Positions 14,720 to 39,518 of a stretch of DNA of 64,000 nucleotides are shown here, in pieces. The stretch spans positions 7,464-71,463 of the forward strand of contig CALYOH010000001.1 of the NCBI GenBank assembly GCA_945228905.1, written 5' to 3'. The stretch is from an uncultured Bacillales bacterium (GTDB taxonomy: Bacteria; Bacillota_I; Bacilli_A; RF39; UBA660). Position 1 is the stretch's first letter. Each line of letters starts with the position of its first letter. The translations under genes were made by a program, and so were the position numbers. A model generated the notes under the pieces. That model had not been told where the DNA came from. It did not search any database and saw nothing but the letters and a program-made list of their open reading frames with translations.

Positions 14720-15175
14720 ATGATCAGAATAATTTCAATAGGAGCTATTAAAGAAAAGTATTTAAAAGATGCAATAGATGAATATAAAAAAAGAATTAGT
14801 AAATATACTAATCTTGAAATAATAGAATTAAAAGATGAAGGACTAGTAGAAGAATCTAAATCAATAAAATTAGAAGGAGAAAAAATAGAAAAACATCTAA
14901 ATGATAAAGACTATATTATTACTTTAGAAATAGAAGGAAAAGAATATAAATCAGTGGAATTCGCAGAAAAACTAAGAAATATACAAATAGAAAATAGTAA
15001 TATAGTATTTATCATAGGAGGAAGCTATGGTTTAGCAGACTCAATAAAAGAAAAAGCAAAAATGCACTTATCTTTTTCTAAAATGACTTTTCCACATCAA
15101 TTATTTAGAGTTCTCCTTTTAGAACAAATCTATAGAGCATATAAAATAAATAATAATGAAAGTTATCATAAATAG
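14720..15175 (+). CDS. rlmH: 23S rRNA (pseudouridine1915-N3)-methyltransferase RlmH
   Basis: SPOUT-type 'IVFIIGGSYGL...SFSKMTFPHQLFRVLLLEQIYRAY'. Confidence 0.9.
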   Translation: MIRIISIGAIKEKYLKDAIDEYKKRISKYTNLEIIELKDEGLVEESKSIKLEGEKIEKHLNDKDYIITLEIEGKEYKSVEFAEKLRNIQIENSNIVFIIGGSYGLADSIKEKAKMHLSFSKMTFPHQLFRVLLLEQIYRAYKINNNESYHK

Positions 15176-25708: not shown

Positions 25709-25815
25709 AATCTCTTTTTTGTTGAAAATGCTTGAAAATAATAGAAAACTTTGATATATTAATAACGCATTTATTACTATGACAAGCAATTTGTCATGGC
25801 GGAAGGAGAGATAAT

Positions 25816-26083: not shown

Positions 26084-26527
26084 ATGAAAATAGGATTTGC
26101 AAGTGACCATAGAGGATTTAATTTAAAAGGACAATTAATAGCAGAATTAACAAAAAGAAATTTTGATGTTACAGATTTCGGTACAAATAGTGATAAATCT
26201 ACTGATTATCCAGATTATGCATTTCTTTTAGGAGAAGCAGTAAGAGATGGAAAAGTAGACTTTGGAGTAGCTATTTGTGGATCAGGAATAGGAATAAGTA
26301 TTGCTTGTAATAAAGTAAATGGAGTACGTTGTGCTAAGGTATCTACTAAAGAAGAAGCAGTAGTAACAAGAAATGATAATAATTCAAATATAGTTGCTTT
26401 TGGAGAACAAATTCCATTAGATAAAGCATTTGAAATAGTAATTAACTTTATTAGTACACCATTTTCTGATGAAGAAAAACATCATAGAAGAGTAGATAAA
26501 ATTACTGAATATGAAGGAAAAAGATAA
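26084..26527 (+). CDS. rpiB: Ribose-5-phosphate isomerase B
   Basis: 'MKIGFASDHRGF', 'GVAICGSGIGISIACNK'. Confidence 0.9.
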   Translation: MKIGFASDHRGFNLKGQLIAELTKRNFDVTDFGTNSDKSTDYPDYAFLLGEAVRDGKVDFGVAICGSGIGISIACNKVNGVRCAKVSTKEEAVVTRNDNNSNIVAFGEQIPLDKAFEIVINFISTPFSDEEKHHRRVDKITEYEGKR

Positions 26528-29636: not shown

Positions 29637-32135
29637 ATGGCAATTAAAATATTAAAAAAGATCTTTGATCATGAATATAAAGAATTAAGAAGATTTGCTA
29701 AAATAGCAGATGAAGTAATGGCTCTAGATGAAGAATATTCAAAGTTAACAGATACAGAACTACAAAATAAAACAAATGAATTCAAAGAAAGATTAGCAAA
29801 TGGAGAAACATTAGAAGATATCTTAGTAGAAGCATTTGCAACTGCAAGAGAAGCATCATTCCGTGTAATAGGAGAAAAACATTTCTATGTACAAATTTTA
29901 GGTGCTTTAGCAATACATTATGGTAATATTGCTGAAATGAAAACAGGTGAAGGTAAAACTTTAACTTCTGTATTACCAGCATACTTAAATGCATTAACAG
30001 GAGAAGGAGTACATATCATTACAGTTAATGAATACCTAGCAGGCCGTGATGCTGAATGGATGGGTGGAATTCATAGATTCTTAGGATTAACTGTAGGAGT
30101 AAATGGAAGAGAATTATCACCACAAGAAAAACAAGAAGCATACAACTGTGATATCTTATATTCAACAAATAATGAAGTTGGATTCGACTACTTAAGAGAT
30201 AACATGGTAGTAAGAAAAGAAGATAGAGTACAAAGAAAATTAAACTTTGCAATTATCGACGAAGTAGACTCTGTACTTATAGATGAAGCAAGAACACCAT
30301 TAATTATTTCTGGTGGAGAAATGAAAAACCAAAATCTATATTTAAGTGCAGATAAATGTGTAAAAAGTCTAAAACAAGAAGAAGACTATATACATGATGA
30401 AAAAGTAAATGCAGTTAACTTAACTGAAAAAGGTGCAGATAAAGTAGAAAAAGCATTCCATATAGATAATCTATATGCAGTAGAAAATGCAACATTACTA
30501 CATTTTATTAATCAATCATTACGTGCAAATTATGCGATGAAAAATGATGTAGATTATGTAGTACAAGATGGAGAAATAGTAATAGTTGATCAATTTACTG
30601 GACGTTTAATGAAAGGTAGAGCTTACTCTGATGGATTACATCAAGCAATAGAAGCAAAAGAAGGAGTAAACATCAATGAAGAAACTAAGACATTAGCAAC
30701 TATTACATTCCAAAACTTATTCAGAATGTATAAGAAATTATCAGGTATGACTGGAACTGCTAAAACAGAAGAAGAAGAGTTTAGAGAAATTTATAACATG
30801 TATGTTATAGAAATCCCGACTAATAAACCAGTTATCCGTATTGATGAAGCAGACTTAGTATATGCAACAAAAGAAGCTAAATATGCAGCAATTGTAAGAG
30901 TCGTTAAAGAAAAATATAAAGCAGGACAACCAGTACTTATAGGTACAATTGCAATTGAAACAAGTGAATTAATAAGTAGTTTATTAAAAAAAGCAGGAAT
31001 ACCTCATGAAGTATTAAATGCTAAGAACCATGCACGTGAAGCAGAAATTATTTCAAAGATTGGTTTAGGTAAATCAGTAACAATCGCAACAAATATGGCT
31101 GGTCGTGGTACAGATATTAAACTATCAGACGAAGTAAAAGCTTTAGGTGGATTATGTGTAATTGGTACTGAAAGACATGAATCACGTCGTATCGATAACC
31201 AATTACGTGGGCGTTCAGGACGTCAAGGAGATCCAGGATATACACAATTCTTCGTATCAATGAAAGATGATTTAATGATTAGATTTGGATCAGATAGAAT
31301 CGCATCAATGATGGAAGGAATGGGTATTGGAGATCAAGCTATTAGAAGTAAAGCGTTCACAAAATCTATTGAATCAGCTCAAAAAAGAGTTGAAGGAAAT
31401 AACTTCGATATAAGAAAGAATTTACTACAATATGATGATGTTATGAATAATCAAAGAACATTAATCTATGAAAAGAGAAATAAAATATTAGATAATGACT
31501 CAATTCATGAAATGGTTCTAACTACATTCAGACATCACGTAGAAGACTTAGTTAAATCACATTTAGCACCAAATGGAGTATTAGATGATGAAGACTATGC
31601 AGATATTGTAGAATTCACAAATGAAAACTTATTAAGAAAAGATATTAAAGTAAAAGATATAGAAGGATTATCAGATAGTGAAGTAATTGATCTATTAAGT
31701 AAAAAAGTAATAGATGAGTATGAATCTAAACTAAAAGGTATTCCACAAGAAGTAACAAATGAATTCGAAAAAGTAATTACACTACAAGTATTAGATAATT
31801 ATTGGATGGAACATATTAATACAATGTCTCACTTAAGAGAAGGTATTCACTTAAGAGGATATGCCCAAGAAGATCCATTAAGAGCTTATACTATGGAAGG
31901 TTATGATATGTTCGAATCTATGTTACAAAAGATAGATAAAGATGTCGCAATCTTCTTACTAAAAGCAGAAATAAGACAAAATATAGAAAGAAAAGAACCA
32001 TCTAAAAAGATGATTACAAACGATTCAGAAGCTGCTGAAGTAAAGAAAAAGCCAGTAAGAAAACAAAAGATTGGTAGAAATGATCCATGTCCATGTGGCA
32101 GTGGAAAAAAATATAAGCAGTGCTGCGGAAAGTAA
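29637..32135 (+). CDS. secA: Preprotein translocase ATPase SecA
   Basis: 'EMKTGEGKTL', 'DEVDSVLIDEARTPLIISG', 'MAGRGTDI', C-terminal SEC-C zinc motif 'CPCGSGKKYKQCCGK'. Confidence 0.97.
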   Translation: MAIKILKKIFDHEYKELRRFAKIADEVMALDEEYSKLTDTELQNKTNEFKERLANGETLEDILVEAFATAREASFRVIGEKHFYVQILGALAIHYGNIAEMKTGEGKTLTSVLPAYLNALTGEGVHIITVNEYLAGRDAEWMGGIHRFLGLTVGVNGRELSPQEKQEAYNCDILYSTNNEVGFDYLRDNMVVRKEDRVQRKLNFAIIDEVDSVLIDEARTPLIISGGEMKNQNLYLSADKCVKSLKQEEDYIHDEKVNAVNLTEKGADKVEKAFHIDNLYAVENATLLHFINQSLRANYAMKNDVDYVVQDGEIVIVDQFTGRLMKGRAYSDGLHQAIEAKEGVNINEETKTLATITFQNLFRMYKKLSGMTGTAKTEEEEFREIYNMYVIEIPTNKPVIRIDEADLVYATKEAKYAAIVRVVKEKYKAGQPVLIGTIAIETSELISSLLKKAGIPHEVLNAKNHAREAEIISKIGLGKSVTIATNMAGRGTDIKLSDEVKALGGLCVIGTERHESRRIDNQLRGRSGRQGDPGYTQFFVSMKDDLMIRFGSDRIASMMEGMGIGDQAIRSKAFTKSIESAQKRVEGNNFDIRKNLLQYDDVMNNQRTLIYEKRNKILDNDSIHEMVLTTFRHHVEDLVKSHLAPNGVLDDEDYADIVEFTNENLLRKDIKVKDIEGLSDSEVIDLLSKKVIDEYESKLKGIPQEVTNEFEKVITLQVLDNYWMEHINTMSHLREGIHLRGYAQEDPLRAYTMEGYDMFESMLQKIDKDVAIFLLKAEIRQNIERKEPSKKMITNDSEAAEVKKKPVRKQKIGRNDPCPCGSGKKYKQCCGK

Positions 32136-32173
32136 GTAATTACAAGGGCTTGCGGGATTTTGAAATTAATTTA

Positions 32174-32190
32174 TAGGGAAGAATAGGGAA
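32174..32190 (+). repeat. Two TAGGGAA iterons at 10-bp phasing, abutting motif pair R1
   Basis: tagggaa at 32174-32180 and 32184-32190, read directly. Confidence 0.85.
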
Positions 32191-32209
32191 TTAGATACCT
32201 TTTAGATAC
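32191..32209 (+). repeat. R1: tandem TTAGATAC-ctt-TTAGATAC, 55 nt after the secA stop
   Basis: Exact 8-mers at 32191-32198 and 32202-32209. Confidence 0.95.
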
Positions 32210-32227
32210 CCTGAAAATTTAATTTTT

Positions 32228-32262
32228 GACACATTATATTTTGCTATGATGTGTCTTTTTTA
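32228..32262 (+). terminator. Rho-independent terminator of secA (downstream of R1)
   Basis: gacacat...atgtgtc stem followed by ttttttat. Confidence 0.8.
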
Positions 32263-32304
32263 TAAAATAGTATGCTATAATTATTAAAGATAGGGAGTAG
32301 TAAT

Positions 32305-33426
32305 ATGTACTCAAACTTTGATGAAATAATACAAAATATGATAACACCAGAAATGAATAGTGAGGAATTCTTAAAACTATTATTAACATCTGAAATGGAT
32401 CCAGTAAAAGGTAAATTAATGTTAACTAAGAATTTTAATTATGATTTAAATTCAAATCATAGTGAAGATTTAAGTTTTTTTGTAAATAATGTTAAATTTA
32501 AAGCAGAAATATTTTTAAAAAGTATAGAAAAATTACCATTAGAAATAATTCAAGAAAACCAAAATGGAATAACTAATAAGACATTTATTTCGTTTATGAA
32601 GTTTTTATCAACAATCTCTCCAGAAAAGTATTGGGAAATGGTAAATTTGAAAAGAGATAAAAATGTTGGAGATGAAAATAAGAAAAAAAGATTTATTGGA
32701 TACTATGAAAGACTACTTGGTGATAAACATGGTTTTGATTTTGATCCAACTTCTATGGCCTGGTATTATTTTAGAAGCTATACAATGTCTCCGGCAAATA
32801 ATGAAAGTTTTCATACAGATGATGTAAAACATAGATTGTATATTGCAATAAATTATGATCAATTAATGAGTTTTACAACAGATTTTATAAGTAAATTAGA
32901 AGAAGTTAATCAACCGTATTTATTAAAAATCAAAAGCTGCAGACCCAGCGGAAAGTGTCCAGAAAATGATATGTTGGTTATTTATGCTGATACTGAAGAA
33001 AGAGTATTAAAATATGTTAATATATTAAATGAAATGATAAAAGGTAACCAAGAATATGAACAGTCAATTCATATTCCATCATCGCATTTAGGAATTATTG
33101 ATGGTAAAATTGGGTATGGTAGAGAATTTGGAAAAGAGTCATCATATTCAGGTGTTGTTGGTGAAATTGGTGGTAAAGTAATAAGAACAGCCTTACGTGA
33201 TGTGTATTATGGAAGAGGACAATCTAGAGATTATTCTAAAAAGGAGATGTTTGAGGTTATACAACATATGAAAATATCATTATCAAGTAGAGATGTTTTT
33301 GAAAATTTTAAAGAAAATTTTTGGGATGAGTTTTATAAAATATGTGAACAAAGAGGATATAATATGGATGAATCTATTTGCGTTGGTGAGAGAGAAGAGC
33401 ATAAAATAGATAGAAAACGGAACTGA
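32305..33426 (+). CDS. Orphan 373-aa cytoplasmic protein, family not confidently recognised
   Basis: Own extended -10 (tgcTATAAT 32273-32281) and RBS agggag. The segment 'HRLYIAINYD...YLLKIKS...NDMLVIYAD' faintly recalls HopA1/LanKC-N-lyase-like proteins (unverified). Confidence 0.6.
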   Translation: MYSNFDEIIQNMITPEMNSEEFLKLLLTSEMDPVKGKLMLTKNFNYDLNSNHSEDLSFFVNNVKFKAEIFLKSIEKLPLEIIQENQNGITNKTFISFMKFLSTISPEKYWEMVNLKRDKNVGDENKKKRFIGYYERLLGDKHGFDFDPTSMAWYYFRSYTMSPANNESFHTDDVKHRLYIAINYDQLMSFTTDFISKLEEVNQPYLLKIKSCRPSGKCPENDMLVIYADTEERVLKYVNILNEMIKGNQEYEQSIHIPSSHLGIIDGKIGYGREFGKESSYSGVVGEIGGKVIRTALRDVYYGRGQSRDYSKKEMFEVIQHMKISLSSRDVFENFKENFWDEFYKICEQRGYNMDESICVGEREEHKIDRKRN

Positions 33427-33438
33427 AGATAGAGAAAT

Positions 33439-33458
33439 TTAGATACCTTATTAGATAC
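33439..33458 (+). repeat. R2: tandem TTAGATAC-ctta-TTAGATAC, 12 nt after the stop of the 373-aa gene
   Basis: Exact 8-mers at 33439-33446 and 33451-33458. Confidence 0.95.
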
Positions 33459-33506
33459 TTTGTTCACTATAAATCCCTATTTATACACATTTCTTCATAG
33501 TGCTTA

Positions 33507-33533
33507 AAGGGAATTATAGGGAAAATAAGGGAT
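33507..33533 (+). repeat. Three (A/T)AGGGA(A/T) iterons at exact 10-bp phasing (plus an inverted TCCCTA at 33474-33479)
   Basis: aagggaa 33507, tagggaa 33517, aagggat 33527. Confidence 0.85.
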
Positions 33534-33587
33534 AAAATATAAAGAAATAAAACAAATTAAAGATTTATAGTGATTGAAATAGTAAAA

Positions 33588-33641
33588 GACACATGTCCAT
33601 GTGGCTCAGGAAAAAAATATAAACAATGCTGTGGTAAATAA
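33588..33641 (+). other. secA' : displaced copy of the secA 3' end (SEC-C motif 'DTCPCGSGKKYKQCCGK*')
   Basis: The 13 terminal codons encode the same peptide as secA 32097-32135 and differ only at synonymous positions. No plausible full gene sits around it. Confidence 0.9.
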
Positions 33642-33697
33642 CAGGAAAACCCGATTTTTGAGCTTTTTATAATATAACATAAACTAAAAAGTTAAAA

Positions 33698-33717
33698 TTA
33701 GATACAAATTTAGATAC
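33698..33717 (+). repeat. R3: tandem TTAGATAC-aaat-TTAGATAC, 56 nt after the secA' stop
   Basis: Exact 8-mers at 33698-33705 and 33710-33717. Confidence 0.95.
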
Positions 33718-33735
33718 ATTTTTTTGAGATTTTTT

Positions 33736-33754
33736 GTATCTAATTTGTATCTAA
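33736..33754 (-). repeat. R3inv: inverted tandem GTATCTAA-ttt-GTATCTAA, forming a 19/20-bp palindrome with R3
   Basis: Reverse complement of R3 minus one spacer T; 18-nt loop between the arms. Confidence 0.95.
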
Positions 33755-33844
33755 AAATATTTTAAAACTATAAAAGTATTGAAAAACAAGGAAAATTTAA
33801 GTTAAGTGACCGCTTTCGCTTTGGTAGTGGTCATTTGTTAATAT

Positions 33845-33873
33845 TTGAAAAATTAAGTAAAATATGTTATAAA
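33845..33873 (+). promoter_or_regulatory. Promoter of the ABC exporter unit
   Basis: TTGAAA (33845-33850), 17 bp, TATAAA (33868-33873) with upstream TG (extended -10). Confidence 0.55.
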
Positions 33874-33905
33874 ATAAGCAATTGAATTTTAAAGGGGGAA
33901 ATAGA

Positions 33906-35672
33906 GTGAAAAAGAATAATTTAACAAAAGTATTGAAAAAAATATATAAATTGTTAGATACAAAACAAAAATTAAGATTTATTTTAATAATTATTATAAT
34001 GATAGTTTCTGCTGCACTTGCTCAAATGACACCCAAAGCAATTGGATGGCTTACAGATGATATATTAACTAAAAACGAAATATCATTCAATAAAGTTATT
34101 CCATTTTTAGTATTTATATTAGTAGTAAATGTAGTAAATGAAGTAATAAAGATATTTAGAAGAGTATTAGTTGAAGATACAGCGACAAGAACAGAAAAGA
34201 AAGCAAGAGGAATGGTAATAAAATCATTATTGATGGCACCATTATCTTATTTTAGAAAAAATATGACTGGAAATATTCATGGAAGGCTTAATAGATGCTT
34301 AGATGGAACTATTAAATTAGAAAAATTATTATTTATGGATTTTGCTCCAGCTATATTTAATGCAGTTGCTGCAATTATAACCATATTCTTAACATTACCT
34401 ATTACACTTGCATTACCAATGTTATTAGTTATTCCAATAGGAGTATATATTGTTTTAAAACAAATTAAGAGTCAAAAAGGTATAAGAGTAGAACTCTTAG
34501 AAAGCAAATCAGGAATGGATGGAACTATTGTTGAACTAATAAATGGAATAGAAGTAATAAGAATTTGTGATAGTTTAGATTTCGAAACGAAAAGATTTGA
34601 CGACAAAGGTGAATTTTTAAGAGCAAAAGAAATGAAACATCATAAAGCCATGGCAATGTATGACTGTTTGAAATTTATTAACCAAGCTATATTTACAGTT
34701 TTAGTAATTGGAATTTCTACATATTTAGCAACTAAGAATATAATATCAGTTGGTGCTGTATTAACTGCATATCTATGTTTCAATCAATTGCTAAGACCAT
34801 TAGAAGAATTGCATAGAATATTTGATGAAGTTTCTGAATGTACAGTTTTAGCAACAGATTTCTTTAAAATGGTAGAAATAGAAAATGACTTTTCATATTT
34901 ACCAATAAATAAAGAATCAGAGAATAAATCAACAAATGAGATTATAAACATGGAAAATATAACTTTCCATTATTCTGAAAATGAAGATAAGATTATTTTA
35001 GATAATTTTAATATTGATATAGAAAAGGGAATGTATCTTGGAATTGCTGGACCATCAGGTTGTGGAAAATCTTCATTGATAAAATCAATTTGTAAATTTG
35101 AAAAAGCTAATGGAACAATAATTGTTGATGATAAAAATATTGATAATTTAACAAGAAAAGATTTATCAAAATTAATAGCATTAGTACCTCAAAGTCCATT
35201 CTTAATTGCAGGAACAATATTTGAAAATATAACATATGGAATTGATAGAGAAGTTTCTATTGAAGAGGTTGAGGAAGCAGCTAGAAGAGCATATATTTAT
35301 GATTATATAAATGGACTTCCAGATAAATTTGATTCACTGGTTTCTGAAGGAGGAAATAATCTATCAGGTGGGCAAAGACAAAGAATTGCTATTGCAAGAA
35401 TATTCTTAAGAAAACCTAAAATACTAATTTTAGATGAAGCAACATCAGCTCTTGATAATACATATGAAAAATATATTCAAGCTGAAATAGAAAAAATGAA
35501 ACAGGAAAATAATACAACAATTATTGCAATTGCACATAGATTAACTACATTGAAAAATTGTGATAGAATTATTGTGCTTAATAAAGGTAAGATTGAAGAA
35601 GATGGAAAATTTGATGATCTTATAGAACAAAATGGAATGTTTAGTGACATGTATTACGGAAAGTTGAATTAA
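33906..35672 (+). CDS. Fused TMD-NBD ABC exporter (MsbA/bacteriocin-exporter type, no C39 peptidase domain)
   Basis: Six-TM N-terminal half. Walker A 'GPSGCGKSS', signature 'LSGGQRQRIAIAR', Walker B 'ILILDEATSALD'. GTG 33906 preferred (RBS aaggggg); TTG 33882 is possible. Confidence 0.88.
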   Translation: MKKNNLTKVLKKIYKLLDTKQKLRFILIIIIMIVSAALAQMTPKAIGWLTDDILTKNEISFNKVIPFLVFILVVNVVNEVIKIFRRVLVEDTATRTEKKARGMVIKSLLMAPLSYFRKNMTGNIHGRLNRCLDGTIKLEKLLFMDFAPAIFNAVAAIITIFLTLPITLALPMLLVIPIGVYIVLKQIKSQKGIRVELLESKSGMDGTIVELINGIEVIRICDSLDFETKRFDDKGEFLRAKEMKHHKAMAMYDCLKFINQAIFTVLVIGISTYLATKNIISVGAVLTAYLCFNQLLRPLEELHRIFDEVSECTVLATDFFKMVEIENDFSYLPINKESENKSTNEIINMENITFHYSENEDKIILDNFNIDIEKGMYLGIAGPSGCGKSSLIKSICKFEKANGTIIVDDKNIDNLTRKDLSKLIALVPQSPFLIAGTIFENITYGIDREVSIEEVEEAARRAYIYDYINGLPDKFDSLVSEGGNNLSGGQRQRIAIARIFLRKPKILILDEATSALDNTYEKYIQAEIEKMKQENNTTIIAIAHRLTTLKNCDRIIVLNKGKIEEDGKFDDLIEQNGMFSDMYYGKLN

Positions 35673-35675
35673 ATT

Positions 35676-35695
35676 TTAGATACAAATTTAGATAC
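35676..35695 (+). repeat. R4: tandem TTAGATAC-aaat-TTAGATAC, 3 nt after the ABC exporter stop, running into its terminator stem
   Basis: Exact 8-mers at 35676-35683 and 35688-35695. Confidence 0.95.
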
Positions 35696-35725
35696 CTTGA
35701 AAAAGAACAATCAAGGTCTTTTTTT
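35694..35725 (+). terminator. Rho-independent terminator of the ABC exporter
   Basis: accttga-10 nt-tcaaggt followed by cttttttt. The stem begins inside R4. Confidence 0.8.
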
Positions 35726-35805
35726 GAAAATATAATTGCATGTATCTATACATTTAAATAAAATAATTGTATAATTAAAATGTAAAATAGAAAGGAGTAA
35801 TTTAA

Positions 35806-36315
35806 ATGGAAGAAAAGAAAAAGAGTAATGTTGGATTAATCGTACTTGTAGTTATTTTATTGCTAGCATGCATAGGAATGGGATGTTATATTGGATATGA
35901 TAAACTATTAAGTGATAATAAGTGTATAATAGAAGAAGATTCAAAGAGTGAAACTAATTCAAAAAATGAAAAACAAACAATCACAGAACAAACACAAACA
36001 AATGAAGAAAGCAATACCACTTCAAGTAAGGTAAGATGTTATGGAACATATTATGTAAATGGAGATAAAAATAGCGGAGTATACACACTAAAAGAAGATG
36101 GCACATGGAATGTTGAAAATGGTGAACAATATGGAGTATTTACTATAAATGAAAATACAATTACTATGATCGAAGAAAAACATACAGTTGGTCCTAGAGA
36201 AGAAGATCCATATTATTATAATCCAAAGAGTTATTTAATCTCAGATGATTGTTCTAAAATAAGATTAACTGAATCTGGAAGTCATACATCTGCTACTCTA
36301 AATAAAGTAAATTAA
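35806..36315 (+). CDS. Small membrane-anchored/secreted protein, unknown function
   Basis: 169 aa. N-terminal TM 'VGLIVLVVILLLACIGMGCYIG', Ser/Thr/Glu-rich linker, then a globular C-terminus. RBS aaaggag. Confidence 0.55.
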   Translation: MEEKKKSNVGLIVLVVILLLACIGMGCYIGYDKLLSDNKCIIEEDSKSETNSKNEKQTITEQTQTNEESNTTSSKVRCYGTYYVNGDKNSGVYTLKEDGTWNVENGEQYGVFTINENTITMIEEKHTVGPREEDPYYYNPKSYLISDDCSKIRLTESGSHTSATLNKVN

Positions 36316-36328
36316 AAAACAATTAAAT

Positions 36329-36353
36329 AAAGACTATTTTAAATAGTCTTTTT
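36329..36353 (+). terminator. Rho-independent terminator of the small membrane protein gene
   Basis: aaagactat-tttaa-atagtcttt followed by tt. Confidence 0.75.
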
Positions 36354-36359
36354 AGATAA
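36352..36359 (+). repeat. Single degenerate motif copy TTAGATAA (7/8)
   Basis: Immediately follows the terminator stem. Confidence 0.5.
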
Positions 36360-36414
36360 CTATATTGTTCAAAAAACGAAAAACATTGCAAAATATATGA
36401 AGAATACAGCAGTT

Positions 36415-36453
36415 GGCAGTGGAAAAAAATATAAACAATGTTGTGGTAAATAA
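36415..36453 (+). other. secA'' : second displaced, shorter copy of the secA 3' end ('GSGKKYKQCCGK*')
   Basis: 13 codons encode a peptide identical to the secA terminus with only synonymous differences. The upstream CPC codons are lost. Followed by the hairpin atctcgt...acgagat. Confidence 0.85.
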
Positions 36454-36534
36454 TCTCGTTTTTCCTTATAATAAAGGAATTACGAGATTTTTCTTTGCTC
36501 AACATTATGTGAAATTTTTACCAAAAAAAGGCGG

Positions 36535-36553
36535 TTAGATACGTTTTAGATAT
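36535..36553 (+). repeat. R5: tandem TTAGATAC-gtt-TTAGATAT, 81 nt after the secA'' stop
   Basis: 8/8 at 36535-36542 and 7/8 at 36546-36553. The second copy runs into the palindrome atatgtttttt/aaaaaacatat. Confidence 0.9.
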
Positions 36554-36588
36554 GTTTTTTCTTAAAAAACATATTAAATCGTCTAAAT

Positions 36589-36608
36589 AAAATAACAAAC
36601 GTTATTTT
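36589..36608. promoter_or_regulatory. Putative TetR operator 1 (AAAATAAC-aaac-GTTATTTT)
   Basis: 20-bp site with 8-bp inverted arms, identical to the copy at 36643-36662. Lies just upstream of the -35. Confidence 0.6.
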
Positions 36609-36612
36609 TACA

Positions 36613-36641
36613 TTGACAAATATTGTAAAGTAGTGTATATA
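36613..36641 (+). promoter_or_regulatory. Promoter of the TetR-methyltransferase operon
   Basis: TTGACA (36613-36618), 17 bp, TATATA (36636-36641). Confidence 0.65.
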
Positions 36642-36642
36642 C

Positions 36643-36662
36643 AAAATAACAAACGTTATTTT
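36643..36662. promoter_or_regulatory. Putative TetR operator 2, covering the predicted transcription start
   Basis: Exact repeat of the 20-bp site at 36589-36608. Confidence 0.6.
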
Positions 36663-36684
36663 ATATATTTTTGAGGTGATGTTT

Positions 36685-37239
36685 ATGGCGAGAACTATTA
36701 AATTTTCTAAAGAAGATATATTGGAAAAGAGTGTTGAATTTATAAAGAAAAAAGGTTACTCTAATCTAACAGTTAGAGAACTTGCTAAATATATAGGATG
36801 TTCAACACAGCCAATATTTAAAAATTATGAAAACTTTGATATGTATAAAGAGAATCTTAAATTCTATTTAAGGAAAGATTACTCATCATTTATTCGTAAG
36901 TATATAGATATAAAAGATTATTTATATACAATAAGTTATGCATATGCTTTTTATGCAAAAAAAGAACCAAATGTATTCTTTTCATTATTTATGGCAGATC
37001 TTGCTGGTTCTAGAACAGTAAGTGAAGTATTAAATACTGATAGAAACAAGGAAACTATTAATGCAATGGTAAAACAATATAAAATATCTTTAGAAGATGC
37101 AAAAAAAATATACCGTGAAGTAAGATTCTATACTCATGGTATCGCAACACAATTATGTGTTAATAGTATTAAATTAACTGATAAAGAAATCAAAGATTTA
37201 ATTAAAAATAATATAGAAATTAACTTAAGGGGGATATAA
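36685..37239 (+). CDS. TetR/AcrR-family transcriptional regulator
   Basis: N-terminal HTH 'GYSNLTVRELAKYIGCSTQPIFKNY'. ATG 36685 lies 7 nt after gaggtg. Confidence 0.8.
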   Translation: MARTIKFSKEDILEKSVEFIKKKGYSNLTVRELAKYIGCSTQPIFKNYENFDMYKENLKFYLRKDYSSFIRKYIDIKDYLYTISYAYAFYAKKEPNVFFSLFMADLAGSRTVSEVLNTDRNKETINAMVKQYKISLEDAKKIYREVRFYTHGIATQLCVNSIKLTDKEIKDLIKNNIEINLRGI

Positions 37240-37241
37240 TT

Positions 37242-37877
37242 ATGAATTTATATGAAAGAAATCAAAAACAAAGAACATTCTTTAATGAAAAGATAGATTC
37301 TTATGATGATGTACATAGTACATATGTAGAAACTAAAAAAACATTAGGAGATAGCCTAGATAAAGAAACAAAAAAAATATTAGACTTGGGTGCAGGTACA
37401 GGACTAGAATTAATTCATGTATTTGAATTATTCCCAAGTGTTGAAGTAACAGTCATAGATATTACCGAAAATATGCTTGAAGAATTAAAAAAAAGAAGTT
37501 TTGCAGATAATGTAACTACTATATGTGGCGATTTCTTTGAAGTAGAATTTGGAGATAGTTATGATGCAGTTATATCTACATCAGCACTTCACCATTTTAA
37601 ACCAGAAGAAAAAATAAAACTATATAAAAAAATATATAATTGTTTAAAAGACAATGGTCAGTTCATAAATTGTGATAAAATAGCTCTAACACAAGAAATA
37701 GAAGATGGTCAATTATATGAGCTAGAAAACAATATAGAAAATTATAAACATATAGATACGCCACTTACTGTAGAACATGAAATAGAAGTATTAAAAAATG
37801 TTGGCTTTCAAGAAATAACTTCGAGCAATGTAGATAAAGATGATTATAGTCTATTTAAGGCTAGAAAAATGAAATAA
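37242..37877 (+). CDS. Class I SAM-dependent methyltransferase
   Basis: Motif I 'ILDLGAGTGLE', 'VIDITENML', 'DAVISTSALHH'. Begins 2 nt after the TetR stop. Confidence 0.8.
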   Translation: MNLYERNQKQRTFFNEKIDSYDDVHSTYVETKKTLGDSLDKETKKILDLGAGTGLELIHVFELFPSVEVTVIDITENMLEELKKRSFADNVTTICGDFFEVEFGDSYDAVISTSALHHFKPEEKIKLYKKIYNCLKDNGQFINCDKIALTQEIEDGQLYELENNIENYKHIDTPLTVEHEIEVLKNVGFQEITSSNVDKDDYSLFKARKMK

Positions 37878-37878
37878 T

Positions 37879-37897
37879 TTAGATACTTTTGAGATAC
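37879..37897 (+). repeat. R6: tandem TTAGATAC-ttt-TGAGATAC, 1 nt after the methyltransferase stop
   Basis: 8/8 at 37879-37886 and 7/8 at 37890-37897. An inverted GTATCTAg copy at 37920-37927 (7/8 match to GTATCTAA) allows a hairpin gatacgtt...aacgtatc. Confidence 0.9.
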
Positions 37898-37944
37898 GTT
37901 GTGAGACAGTGTCTAAAACGTATCTAGAGAGAAAATTAAATAAG

Positions 37945-37970
37945 AAAAGCATAGTATTTTCAATGCTTTT
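37945..37970 (+). terminator. Terminator-like hairpin after the TetR-methyltransferase operon
   Basis: aaaagcat-10 nt-atgctttt. The U-tract lies mostly inside the stem, so this is weaker. Confidence 0.5.
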
Positions 37971-38087
37971 AGAGGATTTGAACCGTTGTCATAGTGATAT
38001 GGGTGATTTCTGTTCCTATATTGATAAAAATAGTATAAGATGATAAAATACATTTGACAAAATTGCTTGTATAAGGAGTTTGATTAT

Positions 38088-39113
38088 ATGAATTATTTAG
38101 AAAGCGTGGATAAGAGAATAATAGAATATTTCAACATATTAGAACCAGAATTTCCTCTATGGCTTAATGATTACATAAATACTAAAGATTTATTATCTCA
38201 AAAATATATAAGCGTAACCTGCGGTACTATTTATTCTAATTTGTTTGAAAGCAATTTTTTCTTTTCTAGTTTAGATCATGCTGTTGCAGTAGCATTAATT
38301 GTTTGGCATTTTACTAGAGATAAAAAACAAACTTTATCTGGATTATTTCATGATATTGCGACTCCAGCTTTTAAACATTGTGTTGATTTTTTGAATGGAG
38401 ATTATATGACACAAGAATCAACAGAAGATTTAACAACAGAAATAATAAAAAATTCTAATGAAATAGTAAAACTATTAGAAAGAGATAATATTAAAATATC
38501 AGAAATATATAATTATCATATTTATCCGATTGCAGATAATGATACCCCAAGATTATCTGCTGATAGGTTAGAATATTCTTTATCAAACGCACTATTTACT
38601 TATGGATTATTAGATATAGAAAGTATTAAAGAAATTTATAATGACATAGAAATTCAAGAAAATTCGGAAAATGAAATGGAATTAGGATTTAAAACAAAGA
38701 AAATAGCAAGAAATTTTGTAAAAGTTACGAGTAGATTATCTATAATTTATAGGGAGGATAGAACTAGATATTCTATGCAATTTATTGCAGATATTTTGAA
38801 AAAATTAAATAATGAACATAAAATTTCAAAACAGGATTTATATAATCTAAAAGAAAGTGAAGTAATAGATATCATAGAATCATCTAAATATAAAGATATT
38901 TTTAATCTTTGGAAGAATGCTACAAAAGTAAAAACTTCAAAAGAAGAACCTAAAGATGTCTATTATGTTCATCATGGTGCAAAGATAAGATATATTGATC
39001 CATTAGTTAATGGCGAGAGGATATCGGTGCTTTGTAAAATAGCTAATAGCATGATAAATAAAAATTTATCATATGATATGAATAATTATGTTTATTTAGA
39101 TTTTAAATTTTAA
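38088..39113 (+). CDS. HD-domain protein (paralogue of 50138..51058)
   Basis: 'LDHAVAVALIV...LSGLFHDIATPAFKHCVDF...DTPRLSADRLEYS'. ATG 38088 follows RBS aaggag. Aligns along its length with the 50.1-kb paralogue. Confidence 0.75.
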   Translation: MNYLESVDKRIIEYFNILEPEFPLWLNDYINTKDLLSQKYISVTCGTIYSNLFESNFFFSSLDHAVAVALIVWHFTRDKKQTLSGLFHDIATPAFKHCVDFLNGDYMTQESTEDLTTEIIKNSNEIVKLLERDNIKISEIYNYHIYPIADNDTPRLSADRLEYSLSNALFTYGLLDIESIKEIYNDIEIQENSENEMELGFKTKKIARNFVKVTSRLSIIYREDRTRYSMQFIADILKKLNNEHKISKQDLYNLKESEVIDIIESSKYKDIFNLWKNATKVKTSKEEPKDVYYVHHGAKIRYIDPLVNGERISVLCKIANSMINKNLSYDMNNYVYLDFKF

Positions 39114-39120
39114 TAATATT

Positions 39121-39140
39121 TTAGATACATAATTAGATAC
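39121..39140 (+). repeat. R7: tandem TTAGATAC-ataa-TTAGATAC, 7 nt after the HD gene stop
   Basis: Exact 8-mers at 39121-39128 and 39133-39140. Confidence 0.95.
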
Positions 39141-39208
39141 GTTCTGCTAGTGAAGCGGAGTGTAACTGAGTGTATAAAAGAGCAAATATACAGGATAAAA
39201 TGCTTTAA

Positions 39209-39440
39209 AGTAGAGCACATTTTGATAGAATAGCCGATCCAGAAAATGACACTATCTTAATGGTTAACATAAAAAAATGGAATTGATAATTATGTAGGAC
39301 CAAATAGTTTCGCAGAAATAGCTTTTGGATTTTATTTTAGGAAAAAAGTATATTTATTAAATGATATTTATGAACCATTTAAAGATGAAATAATTGGTTG
39401 GAATATAACTCCTTTAAAAGGTGACTTAAATAAATTATGA
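39209..39440 (+). pseudogene. 5'-truncated and frameshifted gene remnant at the distal edge of the array
   Basis: Frame A reads '...FDRIADPENDTILMVNIKKWN*'. It shifts in the A7 run (39271-39277) to frame B 'KNGIDNYVGPNSFAEIAFGFYFRKKVYLLNDIYEPFKDEIIGWNITPLKGDLNKL*'. No start codon or N-terminal half. Confidence 0.45.
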
Positions 39441-39447
39441 AAATAAT

Positions 39448-39473
39448 AAAAGACTAGAAATGGTCTTTTTTTT
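39448..39473 (+). terminator. Rho-independent terminator closing the array
   Basis: aaagacta-gaaa-tggtcttt followed by ttttt. Confidence 0.75.
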
Positions 39474-39518
39474 AATATATAATTCTATAGAGGACAAAAC
39501 AAAAGGAGTGATTACAAT

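Follow-up and report, generated by a model that had tools for sequence, protein, structure and literature searches.

In the 64-kb window (the whole stretch of DNA that was analysed), the interval between secA and pfk is occupied by five modules (M1 to M5), whose cargo genes share one strand and are accompanied by pairs of the 8-mer TTAGATAC and by two copies of the secA 3' end. In the following list R1 to R7 are the direct pairs, a-arm denotes the pair that follows a secA end or copy, and b-arm the pair that precedes the next copy.

29637..32135, plus strand: secA (832 aa), the target gene; Pfam SecA_DEAD, P-loop_SecA, SecA_SW and SEC-C
32091..32135, plus strand: core (attL), the last 45 nt of secA, CCATGTGG through the stop
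32191..32209, plus strand: R1, a-arm (P'-type) of M1; TTAGATACC, 11-bp spacing, 55 nt past the stop
32228..32255, plus strand: intrinsic-terminator-like hairpin in M1, upstream of the cargo promoter region
32305..33426, plus strand: M1 cargo, 373-aa protein
33439..33458, plus strand: R2, b-arm (P-type) of M1; spacing 12 bp, 138 nt upstream of secA copy 1
33597..33641, plus strand: displaced secA 3'-end copy 1; reads PCGSGKKYKQCCGK*
33698..33754: R3, a-arm region of M2; direct pair (33698-33717) and inverted pair (33736-33754)
33882..35672, plus strand: M2 cargo, ABC exporter (596 aa); Pfam ABC_membrane and ABC_tran
35676..35695, plus strand: R4, collapsed junction; M2 b-arm fused with M3 a-arm, the core between them lost
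35806..36315, plus strand: M3 cargo, 169-aa protein whose N-terminus has a membrane or signal segment
36339..36359, plus strand: degenerate b-arm of M3; TTAAATAG-N5-TTAGATAA, ~50 nt before copy 2
36409..36453, plus strand: displaced secA 3'-end copy 2; first 8 nt degenerate, GCAGTTGG replacing CCATGTGG
36535..36553, plus strand: R5, a-arm of M4; 11-bp spacing, 81 nt past copy 2, one mismatch
36676..37877, plus strand: M4 cargo; TetR-like regulator (36676-37239) and class I SAM methyltransferase (37242-37877)
37879..37927: R6, collapsed junction and M5 a-arm region; direct pair (37879-37897, one mismatch) and inverted pair (37909-37927, two mismatches)
38067..39113, plus strand: M5 cargo, 348-aa protein without a family match
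39121..39180, plus strand: R7, b-arm of M5 (12-bp spacing) and start of the conserved P-arm spacer
39212..39472, plus strand: remnant of an ancestral 127-aa gene

The M1 cargo protein has no match in Pfam, NCBIfam, PADLOC or PHROGs, and the same four collections gave no family for the 348-aa M5 protein, so that the label 'HD protein' given to it in the first-pass annotation finds no support in Pfam, NCBIfam or PHROGs. The M2 exporter has MsbA-like matches in NCBIfam, all sub-threshold, and in M4 Pfam identifies TetR_N (under the curated cut-off) and Methyltransf_25. A 181-aa protein related to the M3 cargo (cluster 12) turns up repeatedly in the arrays of related genomes. The view that each unit has its own promoter and terminator is not established: the hairpin at 32228..32255 is the sole terminator-like match in the region, and promoter-like matches in the array are not above shuffle background. 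Several pairs sit just 5' of hairpins.

Distribution of the 8-mer pairs

The 8-mer occurs 25 times in the 64 kb against an expectation of 4.5 ± 2.05, with 15 of the 25 copies falling in 32191-39140. The scan for exact pairs spaced by N2-6 found six, compared with none in shuffles: five direct (32191, 33439, 33698, 35676 and 39121) and one inverted (33736-33754), the latter as first described. When mismatches were allowed, R5 (36535-36553) and R6 (37879-37897) completed a set of seven direct TTAGATAC-N3/4-TTAGATAC pairs, and a degenerate pair appeared at 36339-36359. All seven pairs of the first-pass annotation are therefore present, although R5 and R6 each carry one mismatch and are not exact as had been implied. 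Start-to-start spacing is 11 bp in R1, R5 and R6 and 12 bp in R2, R3, R4 and R7; the recorded distances were likewise recovered, namely 12, 3, 1 and 7 nt from stop codons and 55, 56 and 81 nt from the real or copied secA end. All seven direct and both inverted pairs are confined to the secA-pfk interval, and exact and mismatch scans found no comparable pair (up to three mismatches) outside 32191-39140 in the 64-kb window, in line with the original observation, so the repeat is not generic.

Direct repeats at 11-bp spacing look like winged-helix response-regulator boxes, and this resemblance, together with the hairpins 3' of several pairs, would fit a regulatory or RNA element of a generic kind, for instance an OmpR-type response-regulator operator or a 3'-UTR or terminator repeat. 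That reading is refuted as far as the data go: there are no further pairs among the ~60 window genes, the region has no Rfam match, and pairs in the relatives occur only around secA-derived cores, with a sequence that switches with the integrase lineage. In one related genome (L174) the a-arm also comes only after the terminator located 3' of the secA stop or copy, and therefore lies outside the secA transcript.

Unit boundaries in related genomes

Sequences from 80 relatives and over 120 metagenome contigs were compared with the array. The closest relative, L121 (secA 96% amino-acid identity, pfk 95.6%), is collinear with the window through secA (92% identity) exactly up to the stop at 32135, and its 3.9-kb secA-pfk interval contains neither pairs nor secA copies. 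By this comparison L121 has an empty site, and the block is not invariant among relatives. The remnant at 39212..39472, first reported as a truncated terminal gene, is 82% identical to a 127-aa gene of L121 (13812-14083); it marks the right edge of the array, an edge formed by deletion.

M1 has a counterpart in the fourth module of L174, cargo gene included. Homology between the two (95.4%) begins at 32089 and stops at 33461, though the remaining secA is only 80.3% identical, a likeness that shows horizontal sharing. The last 45 nt of secA in the window are accordingly element-derived and were brought in with M1. Conservation starts exactly at CCATGTGG in 131 displaced secA copies, and holds only onward from there; the start of the repeated block (secA residues 818-820) is the end point of 7 of the relatives' contigs, and 21 of the 80 relatives' MAG contigs end within 150 nt of the secA stop. 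Both copied secA ends of the first-pass annotation were confirmed: copy 1 is intact, with synonymous differences from the real secA end, and serves both M1, as attR core, and M2, as attL core, and copy 2 is degenerate in its first 8 nt.

Homologous modules in different arrays match core to core, with 1.5 kb of flank available on each side. The module shared by L160 and L220 (96.4% identity) starts at +1 and ends at -1 relative to the cores, that of L211 and L214 (99.3%) at +18 and -3, and the L174/L316, L247/L291 and L202/L267 modules behave likewise. Judging from these alignments, the mobile unit runs from one 45-nt secA 3'-end copy to the next; these copies, and not the pairs once taken to close each unit, are its limits. 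Unit polymorphism among relatives is as predicted. Several homology breakpoints do fall at pairs and not at cores (33461, 35676 and 36535), so the arms themselves also join in rearrangements.

Such breakpoints, and the two places (R4 and R6) where nothing but a pair separates one cargo block from the next, could suggest that the pairs are crossover sites of attC/attI type, with cassettes inserted pair to pair. We regard this as disfavoured and very improbable. Among 197 exact comparator pairs with a judgeable position, 191 lie at fixed distances from a secA-derived core (a-position 138, b-position 53), leaving 6 orphans; module homology runs core to core; every intact module has its own secA 3' copy; and in prophages the pair is 61-84 nt away from the secA end instead of at the junction itself. 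The pairs are also direct repeats, without the imperfect inverted-repeat structure of attC.

The geometry around the cores is regular. The spacer is 3 nt in the a-arm of 27 of 30 modules and 4 nt in the b-arm of all 30, and the distance of the a-arm to the stop is bimodal (55-56 and 80-82 nt). An a-arm thus has 11-bp spacing and lies 55 or ~81 nt past the secA stop, and the matching b-arm, with 12-bp spacing, precedes the next secA copy by ~105-140 nt. The a-arm region of integrase-bearing elements, and that of L174, is usually arranged as at R3, with an inverted copy after the direct pair. The two arms of one module are of the same class in 55 of 68 modules, and within the TTAGATAC class the 2 nt past the 8-mer agree in 28 of 30 modules versus 14 of 31 comparisons across a core (Fisher p = 6e-5). 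The arms belong to the module, not to the core beside them.

R4 and R6, which directly follow stop codons without a secA copy, are collapsed junctions, a type that is rare elsewhere (6 of 197 pairs). The L235 counterpart of the R4 pair is an a-arm after a secA copy, homology to L235 and L134 begins at 35676/35687, and homology to L237 (82.5%) begins exactly at 36535. The distal core after R7 is deleted as well; what remains there is the P-arm spacer (gTTCTGCTAG..., with GAGTG repeats phased at 10 bp), and the same 'TTCTGCTAG' spacer is found 3' of b-arms in L174, L344 and L085. Three cores are missing from the array, those at R4 and R6 and the one after R7, and only M1 (32136-33641) keeps a complete attL and attR.

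Tyrosine integrases at the secA site

A tblastn search with the relatives' secA-site tyrosine integrases found none in the 64-kb window, in agreement with the first reading as far as integrases of this kind go. In ~15 relatives, a tyrosine integrase starts 150-245 nt past the secA stop. The IME integrases at this site contain PF00589, PF14659 and PF14657 (Arm-DNA-bind_4), and each lineage has its own repeat (TTGTCCAC, GTTCGCA, TGTGCACA or TTGTGTGC); altogether the repeat falls into at least 12 classes, which follow the integrase lineage of the element. When the arms of two lineages differ, their integrases are 48-63% identical over the N-terminal 58 aa and 56-79% over the rest, the N-terminus being the less conserved part in 18 of 21 such comparisons, and same-arm lineages show no such gap.

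Next to the TTAGATAC arms lies a tyrosine integrase of 373-377 aa, which belongs to temperate phages that integrate at this secA site, so the pairs do co-occur with a recombinase gene. The a-arm is followed by a minus-strand phage-type integrase in nine cases (L260, L278, L290, L201, L321, L323, L345, L347 and L096), with L096 carrying the window's C subclass, that of R1. The same pair lies beside the integrase in L324/325 with no secA fragment upstream, and in L344 a related integrase goes with the sister class TTAGATAAG. Neighbours of the phage integrase are CI/S24 repressor, Cro, Erf, exonuclease, SSB, NinB and DnaD, and the other prophage end in L085 consists of a GH25-LysM endolysin, R-M genes, a TTAGATAC b-arm (12-bp) and a secA copy. 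An unintegrated attP of a TTAGATAC phage or cassette and an excision junction were looked for and not found; in L326, a related phage with a different attB, the order lysin, pair, ~190 nt, pair, int is that of a free attP in the same family.

The pairs are most likely docking ("arm") sites of the phage-type integrase. They might instead bind an accessory protein of the helper element (an excisionase/recombination directionality factor or a DNA-bending protein), since lambda Xis sites are also tandem direct repeats about one helical turn apart, the co-variation seen is with the whole element, and the phage-type integrase N-terminus itself has no Pfam arm-domain match, aligning in register but weakly with the IME arm domain (hhalign E = 0.01, probability 4%). 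However, Xis sites lie on one arm only and Int arm sites typically on both sides of the core, and here the same sequence flanks the core on both sides, in both orientations on the a-side. Homologues of the phage integrase contain PF14657, as the site's IME integrases do; where arms differ, the N-terminal domain is the faster-diverging part of the protein; and the phased 10-bp repeat of the P-arm spacer would make a more plausible Xis-type site. Binding of an accessory protein to the pairs is thus improbable.

Proposed origin of the array

We think it probable that the secA-pfk interval consists of five small integrase-less cassettes in tandem, integrated successively at the secA 3' end, with the TTAGATAC pairs as arm sites of a trans-acting phage integrase. 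The first-pass annotation had proposed an accretion hotspot, recombination in trans and 8-mers as recombinase-binding sites, and this is supported because L121, the closest relative, has an empty site, another genome has the same cassette at a different array position, the motif is accompanied by integrases at this secA site elsewhere among the genomes compared, and the motif co-varies with the integrase lineage. The recombination system is not the undescribed one once supposed: a core flanked by arm-type pairs is the classical att architecture of heterobivalent tyrosine integrases of the lambda/Tn916 type. In place of an integron-like mechanism, the unit boundaries, arm classes and integrase-less units indicate tandem accretion of CIME-like integrative cassettes. 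Tandem accretion of integrase-less elements (CIMEs) is known in Bacillota; the process is of a known kind, and its form here is unusually compact and array-forming, in uncultured gut bacteria.

Under this model, attB would be the last 45 nt of secA (CCATGTGG...stop), with crossover presumably within this core, and the circular cassette would carry a lambda/Tn916-type attP in the order b-arm (12-bp), ~105-140 nt, secA 3'-end core, 55 or ~81 nt, a-arm (11-bp, often with an inverted copy). Integration would swap the secA end for the cassette's own copy, so that secA stays intact, and each insertion would push the previous copy downstream, which would account for the displaced ends at 33597 and 36409. 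The pairs would be bound by the N-terminal arm-binding domain of the integrase. The cognate enzyme is probably the 373-377 aa integrase of temperate phages with the same attB and arm sequence; being absent from the window, it would act in trans, and phage integrases presumably serve the cassettes in this manner. Arm-arm recombination and a terminal deletion may later have removed the three cores.

Alternatively, the cassettes could be dead relics of full prophages or IMEs at secA that lost their interior, the array recording decay with nothing mobile today. Accessory (R-M) genes lie directly upstream of the b-arm at prophage attR ends (L085, L048 and L055), where an internal deletion would leave exactly a-arm, cargo and b-arm; truncated integrases occur in five arrays (L136, L140, L181, L184 and L201), and the window array has itself lost cores and ends in a deletion. 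Against this, 84 of 91 TTAGATAC-type (TTAGATA[AC]) units are without an integrase, and the same 1-3 kb cassettes recur core to core at 95-99% identity with different neighbours in hosts whose secA genes are ~80% identical, so that, after any deletion, it was as small units that they spread. Integrase-less units keep the arm sequence and the 11/12-bp geometry near-perfectly, which argues for continued selection for recombination competence. We therefore hold decay alone to be unlikely, if still a serious contender. The cassettes may be mobile at present, and for M1 (32136-33641) the predicted circle is 1506 bp.

Repeat pairs and modules between secA and pfk

The array between secA and pfk corresponds to a tandem accretion of integrase-less units like cis-mobilizable elements (CIMEs), with an architecture that is that of lambda/Tn916-type att sites. 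The 8-mer TTAGATAC occurs 25 times in the 64-kb window (27% G+C) compared with 4.5 ± 2.05 times in shuffles, and 15 of these copies fall within 32191-39140. Exact pairs, 2-6 nt apart, number six (none in shuffles), five of them direct (32191, 33439, 33698, 35676 and 39121) and one inverted (33736-33754), to which a mismatch-tolerant scan added the direct pairs R5 (36535) and R6 (37879) with one mismatch apiece, a second inverted pair (37909-37927) and a degenerate pair (36339-36359). All seven tandem pairs (R1-R7) reported in the first-pass annotation are present, although R5 and R6 are inexact; start-to-start spacing is 11 bp in R1, R5 and R6 and 12 bp in R2, R3, R4 and R7. The same annotation had seen no pairs elsewhere, and this holds for the rest of the 64 kb, where neither exact nor mismatch-tolerant scans found anything comparable. 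This confinement to the array, the lack of an Rfam match in the secA-pfk region and the pairing of such sites around secA-derived cores in every class led us to reject the reading of the pairs as a generic regulatory or RNA repeat. An OmpR-type operator and a 3'-UTR RNA element were also considered for the pairs and rejected.

Pfam matches in the region are secA, an ABC exporter, a weak TetR-like protein, a SAM methyltransferase and pfk. The cargo comprises six genes, none of them a recombinase, and the three proteins of 373, 169 and 348 aa gave no family match. An exact look-up of the 373-aa protein returned no record, and a defence-system scan of the window's cargo gave generic ABC and methyltransferase matches only. 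The Rfam scan also located an L31-Firmicutes ribosomal-protein leader at 25777-25808 (+), upstream of an ORF at 26084-26527, with 37.7 bits (gathering score 33.3).

In the window the secA 3' end recurs as two displaced copies (33597-33641 and 36409-36453). We refer to the 45-nt secA 3' end or a displaced copy as the core, to the pair 3' of a core as the a-arm and to the pair before the next core as the b-arm.

Modules M1-M5, the five integrase-less cassettes of the window
M1 (complete, 32091-33641): core and R1, gene for the 373-aa protein, R2 and copy 1 of the core
M2 (copy 1 to R4): R3 and its inverted pair, gene for the ABC exporter
M3 (R4 to copy 2, degenerate in part): gene for the 169-aa protein, degenerate b-arm and copy 2
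M4 (copy 2 to R6): R5, genes for the TetR-like protein and the methyltransferase
M5 (R6 onward, distal core deleted): gene for the 348-aa protein and R7

Each end of M1 has a core with its arm (32091-32209 and 33439-33641), and M2-M5 are intact in part only. R4 is homologous to an a-arm that sits behind a secA copy in another array (L235; L numbers denote loci or contigs of relatives, metagenomes and viral sets), which makes R4 a collapsed junction of b-arm and a-arm whose core is gone; R6, where M4 is joined to M5, is likewise a collapsed junction. Only the beginning of the usual P-arm spacer remains 3' of R7, and a deletion joins this spacer start to a gene remnant at 39212. The gpx-marR-trx-trxB block of the closest relative (L121, 14141-16364) is absent from the window, lost through the deletion that truncated the array, and the terminator/promoter region upstream of pfk is common to both (39426-39518 in the window, 16345-16434 in L121).

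Unit boundaries and polymorphism in relatives

A SecA search with one genome per species gave 80 loci, all from MAGs of uncultured gut or rumen Bacilli/'Mollicutes'. In the closest relative, L121 (SecA 96%, Pfk 95.6%), collinearity with the window (92% nucleotide identity) breaks off precisely at the secA stop and resumes from 39212/39426. Neither pairs nor secA copies occur in the secA-pfk interval of L121 (3.9 kb), which therefore represents an empty site; the other genes of the interval include an intact 127-aa gene, a remnant of which ends the window's array. A run of N (masked or a scaffold gap) breaks an acetyltransferase-like ORF in this interval (L121 12931-12961).

Among the 80 species-representative contigs, 21 break off no more than 150 nt from the secA stop, and in seven of these the break is at SecA residues 818-820, the start of the repeated 45-nt block. 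This repeat is a systematic cause of assembly breaks in the clade, which explains how frequent they are at the secA end. A tandem 7-mer pair lies within 140 nt past the secA stop in 38 of the remaining 59 contigs, and 19 of the 59 carry additional downstream secA 3' copies. The 353 ORFs found downstream of secA in relatives fall into 228 clusters, making the region hypervariable. Accretion explains such a hypervariable hotspot beside an essential gene in a large clade of uncultured gut and rumen Bacilli.

The repeating unit is clearest in L174, whose secA has 80.3% nucleotide identity to that of the window. There, a secA 3' copy starting from CCATGTGG is followed by a hairpin, an 11-bp-spaced pair, a promoter-like region with the cargo, a 12-bp-spaced pair, a spacer of ~100 nt and the next secA copy. 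The fourth module of L174 is M1 with its 373-aa gene (95.4% identity across 32089-33461), an identity far exceeding that of the host backbone, and the two copies occupy different array positions. The conserved part of 131 displaced secA copies starts precisely at CCATGTGG, with the stop codon ending 45 nt further on, and the 45-nt block recurs at every module boundary. Modules were also compared between arrays with 1.5 kb of flank available on each side.

Extent of module homology between arrays (start relative to the first core start, end relative to the next core end)
L160/L220: 96.4% identity; start +1; end -1
L211/L214: 99.3% identity; start +18; end -3
L247/L291: 94.8% identity; start +13; end 0
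L202/L267: 97.8% identity; start -31; end -7

Since this homology runs from core to core, the unit of inheritance is bounded by the secA-derived cores and not by the pairs, and the core that bounds the element on both sides is common to attP and attB. The first-pass annotation had taken each unit to be closed by a pair, a view that the core-to-core homology displaces. The polymorphism that it had suggested looking for in relatives does exist at the level of units (L121 is empty, M1 is shared with L174), but the shared units end at cores. The same homology disfavours the pairs themselves as crossover sites, as does their placement: among 197 exact TTAGATAC pairs in the comparators with a judgeable position, 191 are in the a-position (138) or b-position (53) and six are orphans. 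A Tn7-like insertion was considered and rejected because the end pairs are direct and not inverted, the boundary repeat is a gene-derived 45 nt and no transposase genes were seen; IS200/IS605 or IS91 ends were set aside given the lack of a transposase and the same gene-derived boundary.

Arm classes and their integrases

Every element class has two pairs: the a-arm, 55-95 nt past the secA stop or copy and in many cases with an inverted copy behind it, and the b-arm, ~130-200 nt before the end of the next secA copy. At least 12 classes of arm repeat were found at one attB.

Arm repeat classes at the secA attB
Classes 1-4: TTGTCCAC, GTTCGCA, TGTGCACA, TTGTGTGC
Classes 5-8: TTGTTTCCA, TGTTTGCA, TTAGATAAG, TTAGATAC
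Classes 9-12: TACATACG, TTAGATCCGA, TTTTACCTCA, TGTCATCCA

The a- and b-arm belong to the same class in 55 of 68 modules. Within the TTAGATAC class, the 2 nt after the 8-mer match between the a- and b-arm in 28 of 30 modules versus 14 of 31 across a core (Fisher p = 6e-5), and the spacer is 3 nt in the a-arm of 27 of 30 modules and 4 nt in the b-arm of all 30. The distance from a-arm to stop is bimodal (55-56 and 80-82 nt). The arm repeats are integrase-specific, differ from the core and flank it at fixed distances. Single arrays mix classes: L160 (12493-22490) combines TTTGTGCAC, TTAGATAC, an integrase-bearing TTGTCCAC module and TGTTTGCAAA, L177 (12490-19872) combines TACATACG, TTAGATAC, TTAGATAAG and TTAGATCCGA, and L220 and L298 are likewise mixed, indicating that one attB serves many integrase specificities.

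Other motifs recur near the arms. One of them, ATAAAATAAGGG(TTTGCGAG), is conserved behind the secA stop or copy of 171 out of 276 distinct cores and was seen just past the secA stops of L123, L131, L133, L137, L161 and L174. Another is a palindrome, CCTTATAAAATAAGGG, which integrase-bearing elements of differing arm classes have between the a-arm pair and the inverted copy of that pair. In the window, related ATAGGGA / ATAAGGGA repeats lie before R1 (32140-32190) and after R2 (33470-33560). The conserved motif and the palindrome might form a hairpin loop or be bound by a shared accessory or bending protein. The spacer between b-arm and core of TTAGATAC and TTAGATAAG modules begins with (g/c)TTCTGCTAG and is richer in G+C; this P-arm spacer has 10-bp phased repeats (GAGTGCTACGGAGTGCT, CCAAGTGCAACCAAGTGC, GCTCCCAAAAGCTCCCAAAA) and is found at 39141-39180 in the window, at 14765-14870 and 17339-17440 in L174, and in L134, L148, L160, L187, L344 and L085. 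The phased repeats are candidate excisionase or bending-protein sites, present in the P arm only.

The 64-kb window has no integrase of the kinds used at the secA site in relatives. In ~15 of these, a tyrosine integrase of the integrative mobilizable element (IME) type begins 150-245 nt past the secA stop, with the domains Phage_integrase (PF00589), Phage_int_SAM_3 and Arm-DNA-bind_4 (PF14657 at 24.3 bits, cut-off 22.3); nearby Mob_Pre relaxases and Rep-like HTH proteins identify these elements as IMEs. Arms and integrases co-vary, each integrase lineage having its own arm repeat. Across lineages that differ in their arms, identity is 48-63% over the N-terminal 58 residues and 56-79% over the remainder, with the N-terminus less conserved in 18 of 21 comparisons; same-arm lineages lack this difference.

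The integrases of the TTAGATAC class are those of temperate phages. In L260, L278, L290 and L201 the a-arm is followed by a minus-strand phage-type integrase of 373-376 aa (270 aa and truncated in L201), 24-28% identical to the IME type and adjoined by a CI/S24 repressor, Cro, Erf, an exonuclease, SSB, NinB and a DnaD-like protein, a gene set that is a temperate-phage early region. The contigs bearing P0001 and P0002, two further integrases of this class, have the same arrangement, as does L096, with the TTAGATACC subclass of the window's R1. In IMG/VR, L321 and L323 have the secA end (whole, or from CCATGTGG) before the pair and the integrase arranged as in L278, and in L324/325 the pair adjoins the integrase with no secA fragment upstream. 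In L344, where accretion with a prophage was seen, the integrase that goes with the sister class TTAGATAAG is 55% identical. The prophage's other end, in L085, consists of a GH25-LysM endolysin, two DNA methylases and uncharacterised genes, a TTAGATAC b-arm (12-bp spacing), the spacer and a secA copy. A search for a free attP of a TTAGATAC phage, or for the b-arm of a long element, gave attL and attR ends on separate contigs only; the free attP of L326, a related phage with a different attB, reads lysin, pair, ~190 nt, pair and int. A metagenome scan for the secA end followed after 53-83 nt by a TTAGATAC pair returned at least 120 matches, all those listed coming from gut or rumen samples. Viral contigs scanned with the bare pair also gave at least 120, nearly all of those listed being chance-type single matches, and among the matches listed only L006, L048, L055, L085 and L096 proved relevant.

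In some prophages (L278 278-742 (+), L345) a small conserved ORF (145-154 aa, ...NAGEYFVAGELERRGF...) separates the TTAGATAC a-arm from the phage integrase. In L201 (8346-9323), ORFs that look transposase-like by eye follow the truncated integrase, which suggests a possible IS insertion into the prophage.

Both integrase types contain PF00589, with the R, H-x-x-R and Y motifs readable in the sequence, and the closest solved relative of the phage type is Tn1549 Int (PDB search, E = 1.5e-12). Many homologues of the phage type, 45-55% identical, carry PF14657, to which the TTAGATAC-associated integrase itself gave no direct match; hhalign placed the two N-terminal domains in register with a weak match that was not significant, and a PDB sequence search with the N-terminal domain profile gave no meaningful match. 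Binding of the pairs by an excisionase-type accessory protein instead of Int is second in weight among the alternatives. We infer that Int itself would bind the pairs. In the model that the data favour, a heterobivalent tyrosine integrase would recombine attP (b-arm, secA-like core and a-arm) with attB (the last 45 nt of secA), the crossover probably falling at the core. This integrase would act in trans, coming from temperate phages in the TTAGATAC class and from IMEs in the other classes. Each integration would restore secA from the element's copy and displace the older copy downstream.

Integrase-less cassettes and known accretion systems

Downstream sequence of 1.5 kb or more was available for 91 TTAGATA[AC] a-arms. 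Behind seven of them lies an integrase, in every case of the phage type, and behind the other 84 there is none. The 114 complete integrase-less modules surveyed (up to 4.6 kb) carry 189 ORFs in 138 protein clusters, 186 of them co-oriented with secA, with one gene in 63 modules and two in 32. Their cargo includes RhuM, type I R-M subunits, DUF4379 zinc-finger repeat proteins, peptidase S51, NTPase I-T and a queuosine salvage protein. Phage satellites (PICI/SaPI-like), with their own integrase, replication and packaging-interference genes, were considered and rejected, as the cassettes carry one to few unrelated accessory genes.

The window cassettes are without integrase, excisionase and transfer genes, and M1 keeps attL and attR akin to those of an integrase-bearing element, its arm sequences being identical to those adjoining the phage integrase in L096. 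A CIME-style origin by deletion (L085) is plausible. That the cassettes are mere relics of decayed prophages or IMEs, which we ranked in weight ahead of an excisionase-type binder, the pairs as crossover sites and a generic repeat, is also plausible as an origin, but leaves unexplained the core-to-core sharing of small units between arrays and the preserved arm geometry. We suggest, tentatively, that the cassettes are possibly not debris and may be mobile today, as self-propagating minimal elements (a promoter, one or two genes and a complete two-arm attP mimic, without a recombinase) that parasitise the integrases of temperate phages, and of IMEs in other arm classes, at the secA 3' end and build integron-like arrays in uncultured gut and rumen Bacilli, at ~12:1 over their helpers and with at least 12 arm specificities at one attB. 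If so, one attB would multiplex many integrases.

CIMEs as defined in PMC5704250, which cites Pavlovic 2004 and Bellanger 2011, are without integration and transfer genes and keep attL/attR. ICESt1/ICESt3-related elements at the fda 3' end of Streptococcus thermophilus exemplify CIMEs and tandem accretion at tyrosine-integrase att sites. Like these, the window-type units stand in tandem at the 3' end of a conserved gene, each bringing a copy of it, and are co-resident with integrase-bearing elements of equal site specificity. Unlike them, the secA units are 0.7-4 kb, mostly with one or two genes, are stacked to five or more, outnumber integrase-bearing ones ~12:1 and recur between differing neighbours; the TTAGATAC-class integrase is that of temperate phages and not of an ICE or IME, and the target is secA instead of fda. 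The literature searched, which covered streptococcal ICEs and IMEs by term match, did not yield secA as an integration site. The choice of secA as target, the use of one attB for many arm specificities, the small units, almost all without an integrase, and the temperate-phage integrases as likely helpers are unusual.

The att sites of lambda Int and Tn916/Tn1549 likewise have a target-shared core and distinct arm repeats on both sides, about one helical turn apart and in both orientations. The integrases used at secA have the RHRY catalytic domain, and an N-terminal Arm-DNA-bind_4 occurs in those of the IMEs and among homologues of the phage type. The secA sites differ in their new arm sequences, with at least 12 classes at a single attB, and in that the majority of units with att sites lack an integrase gene. 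At least 12 arm specificities, with an integrase sequence for each, and the 45-nt core form a testable att set that could provide orthogonal integration tools for organisms now without genetics.

Island arrays flanked by repeated partial target genes are known from ssrA in Dehalococcoides (PMC3146451) and from the tycheposons of Prochlorococcus tRNA genes (bioRxiv 10.1101/2020.12.28.424599). As in the secA arrays, repeated integration at one site pushes older elements inward, partial target copies lie between cargo and degenerate integrase-less remnants accumulate. In contrast to these islands, the secA target is the 3' end of a protein-coding gene, the hosts are uncultured gut and rumen Bacilli and the modules keep a complete two-arm att architecture.

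In outcome the array resembles an integron, with small, mostly one-gene cassettes of unrelated cargo co-oriented at one chromosomal site and a tyrosine recombinase. However, without IntI, attI or attC hairpin it is not an integron, a candidate also rejected because the window has no integrase, the motif is a direct repeat and each unit has a secA-derived core. Recombination would be at this gene-derived core with arm sites, by a recombinase not encoded at the array. If actively mobile, the cassettes would be a Bacillota counterpart, in function, of integron cassettes and a clear case of minimal elements living off phage integrases. Judged from sequence, with promoter-like matches not above background, the cassettes appear to be separate transcription units, each starting from a copy of the secA end and usually a hairpin.
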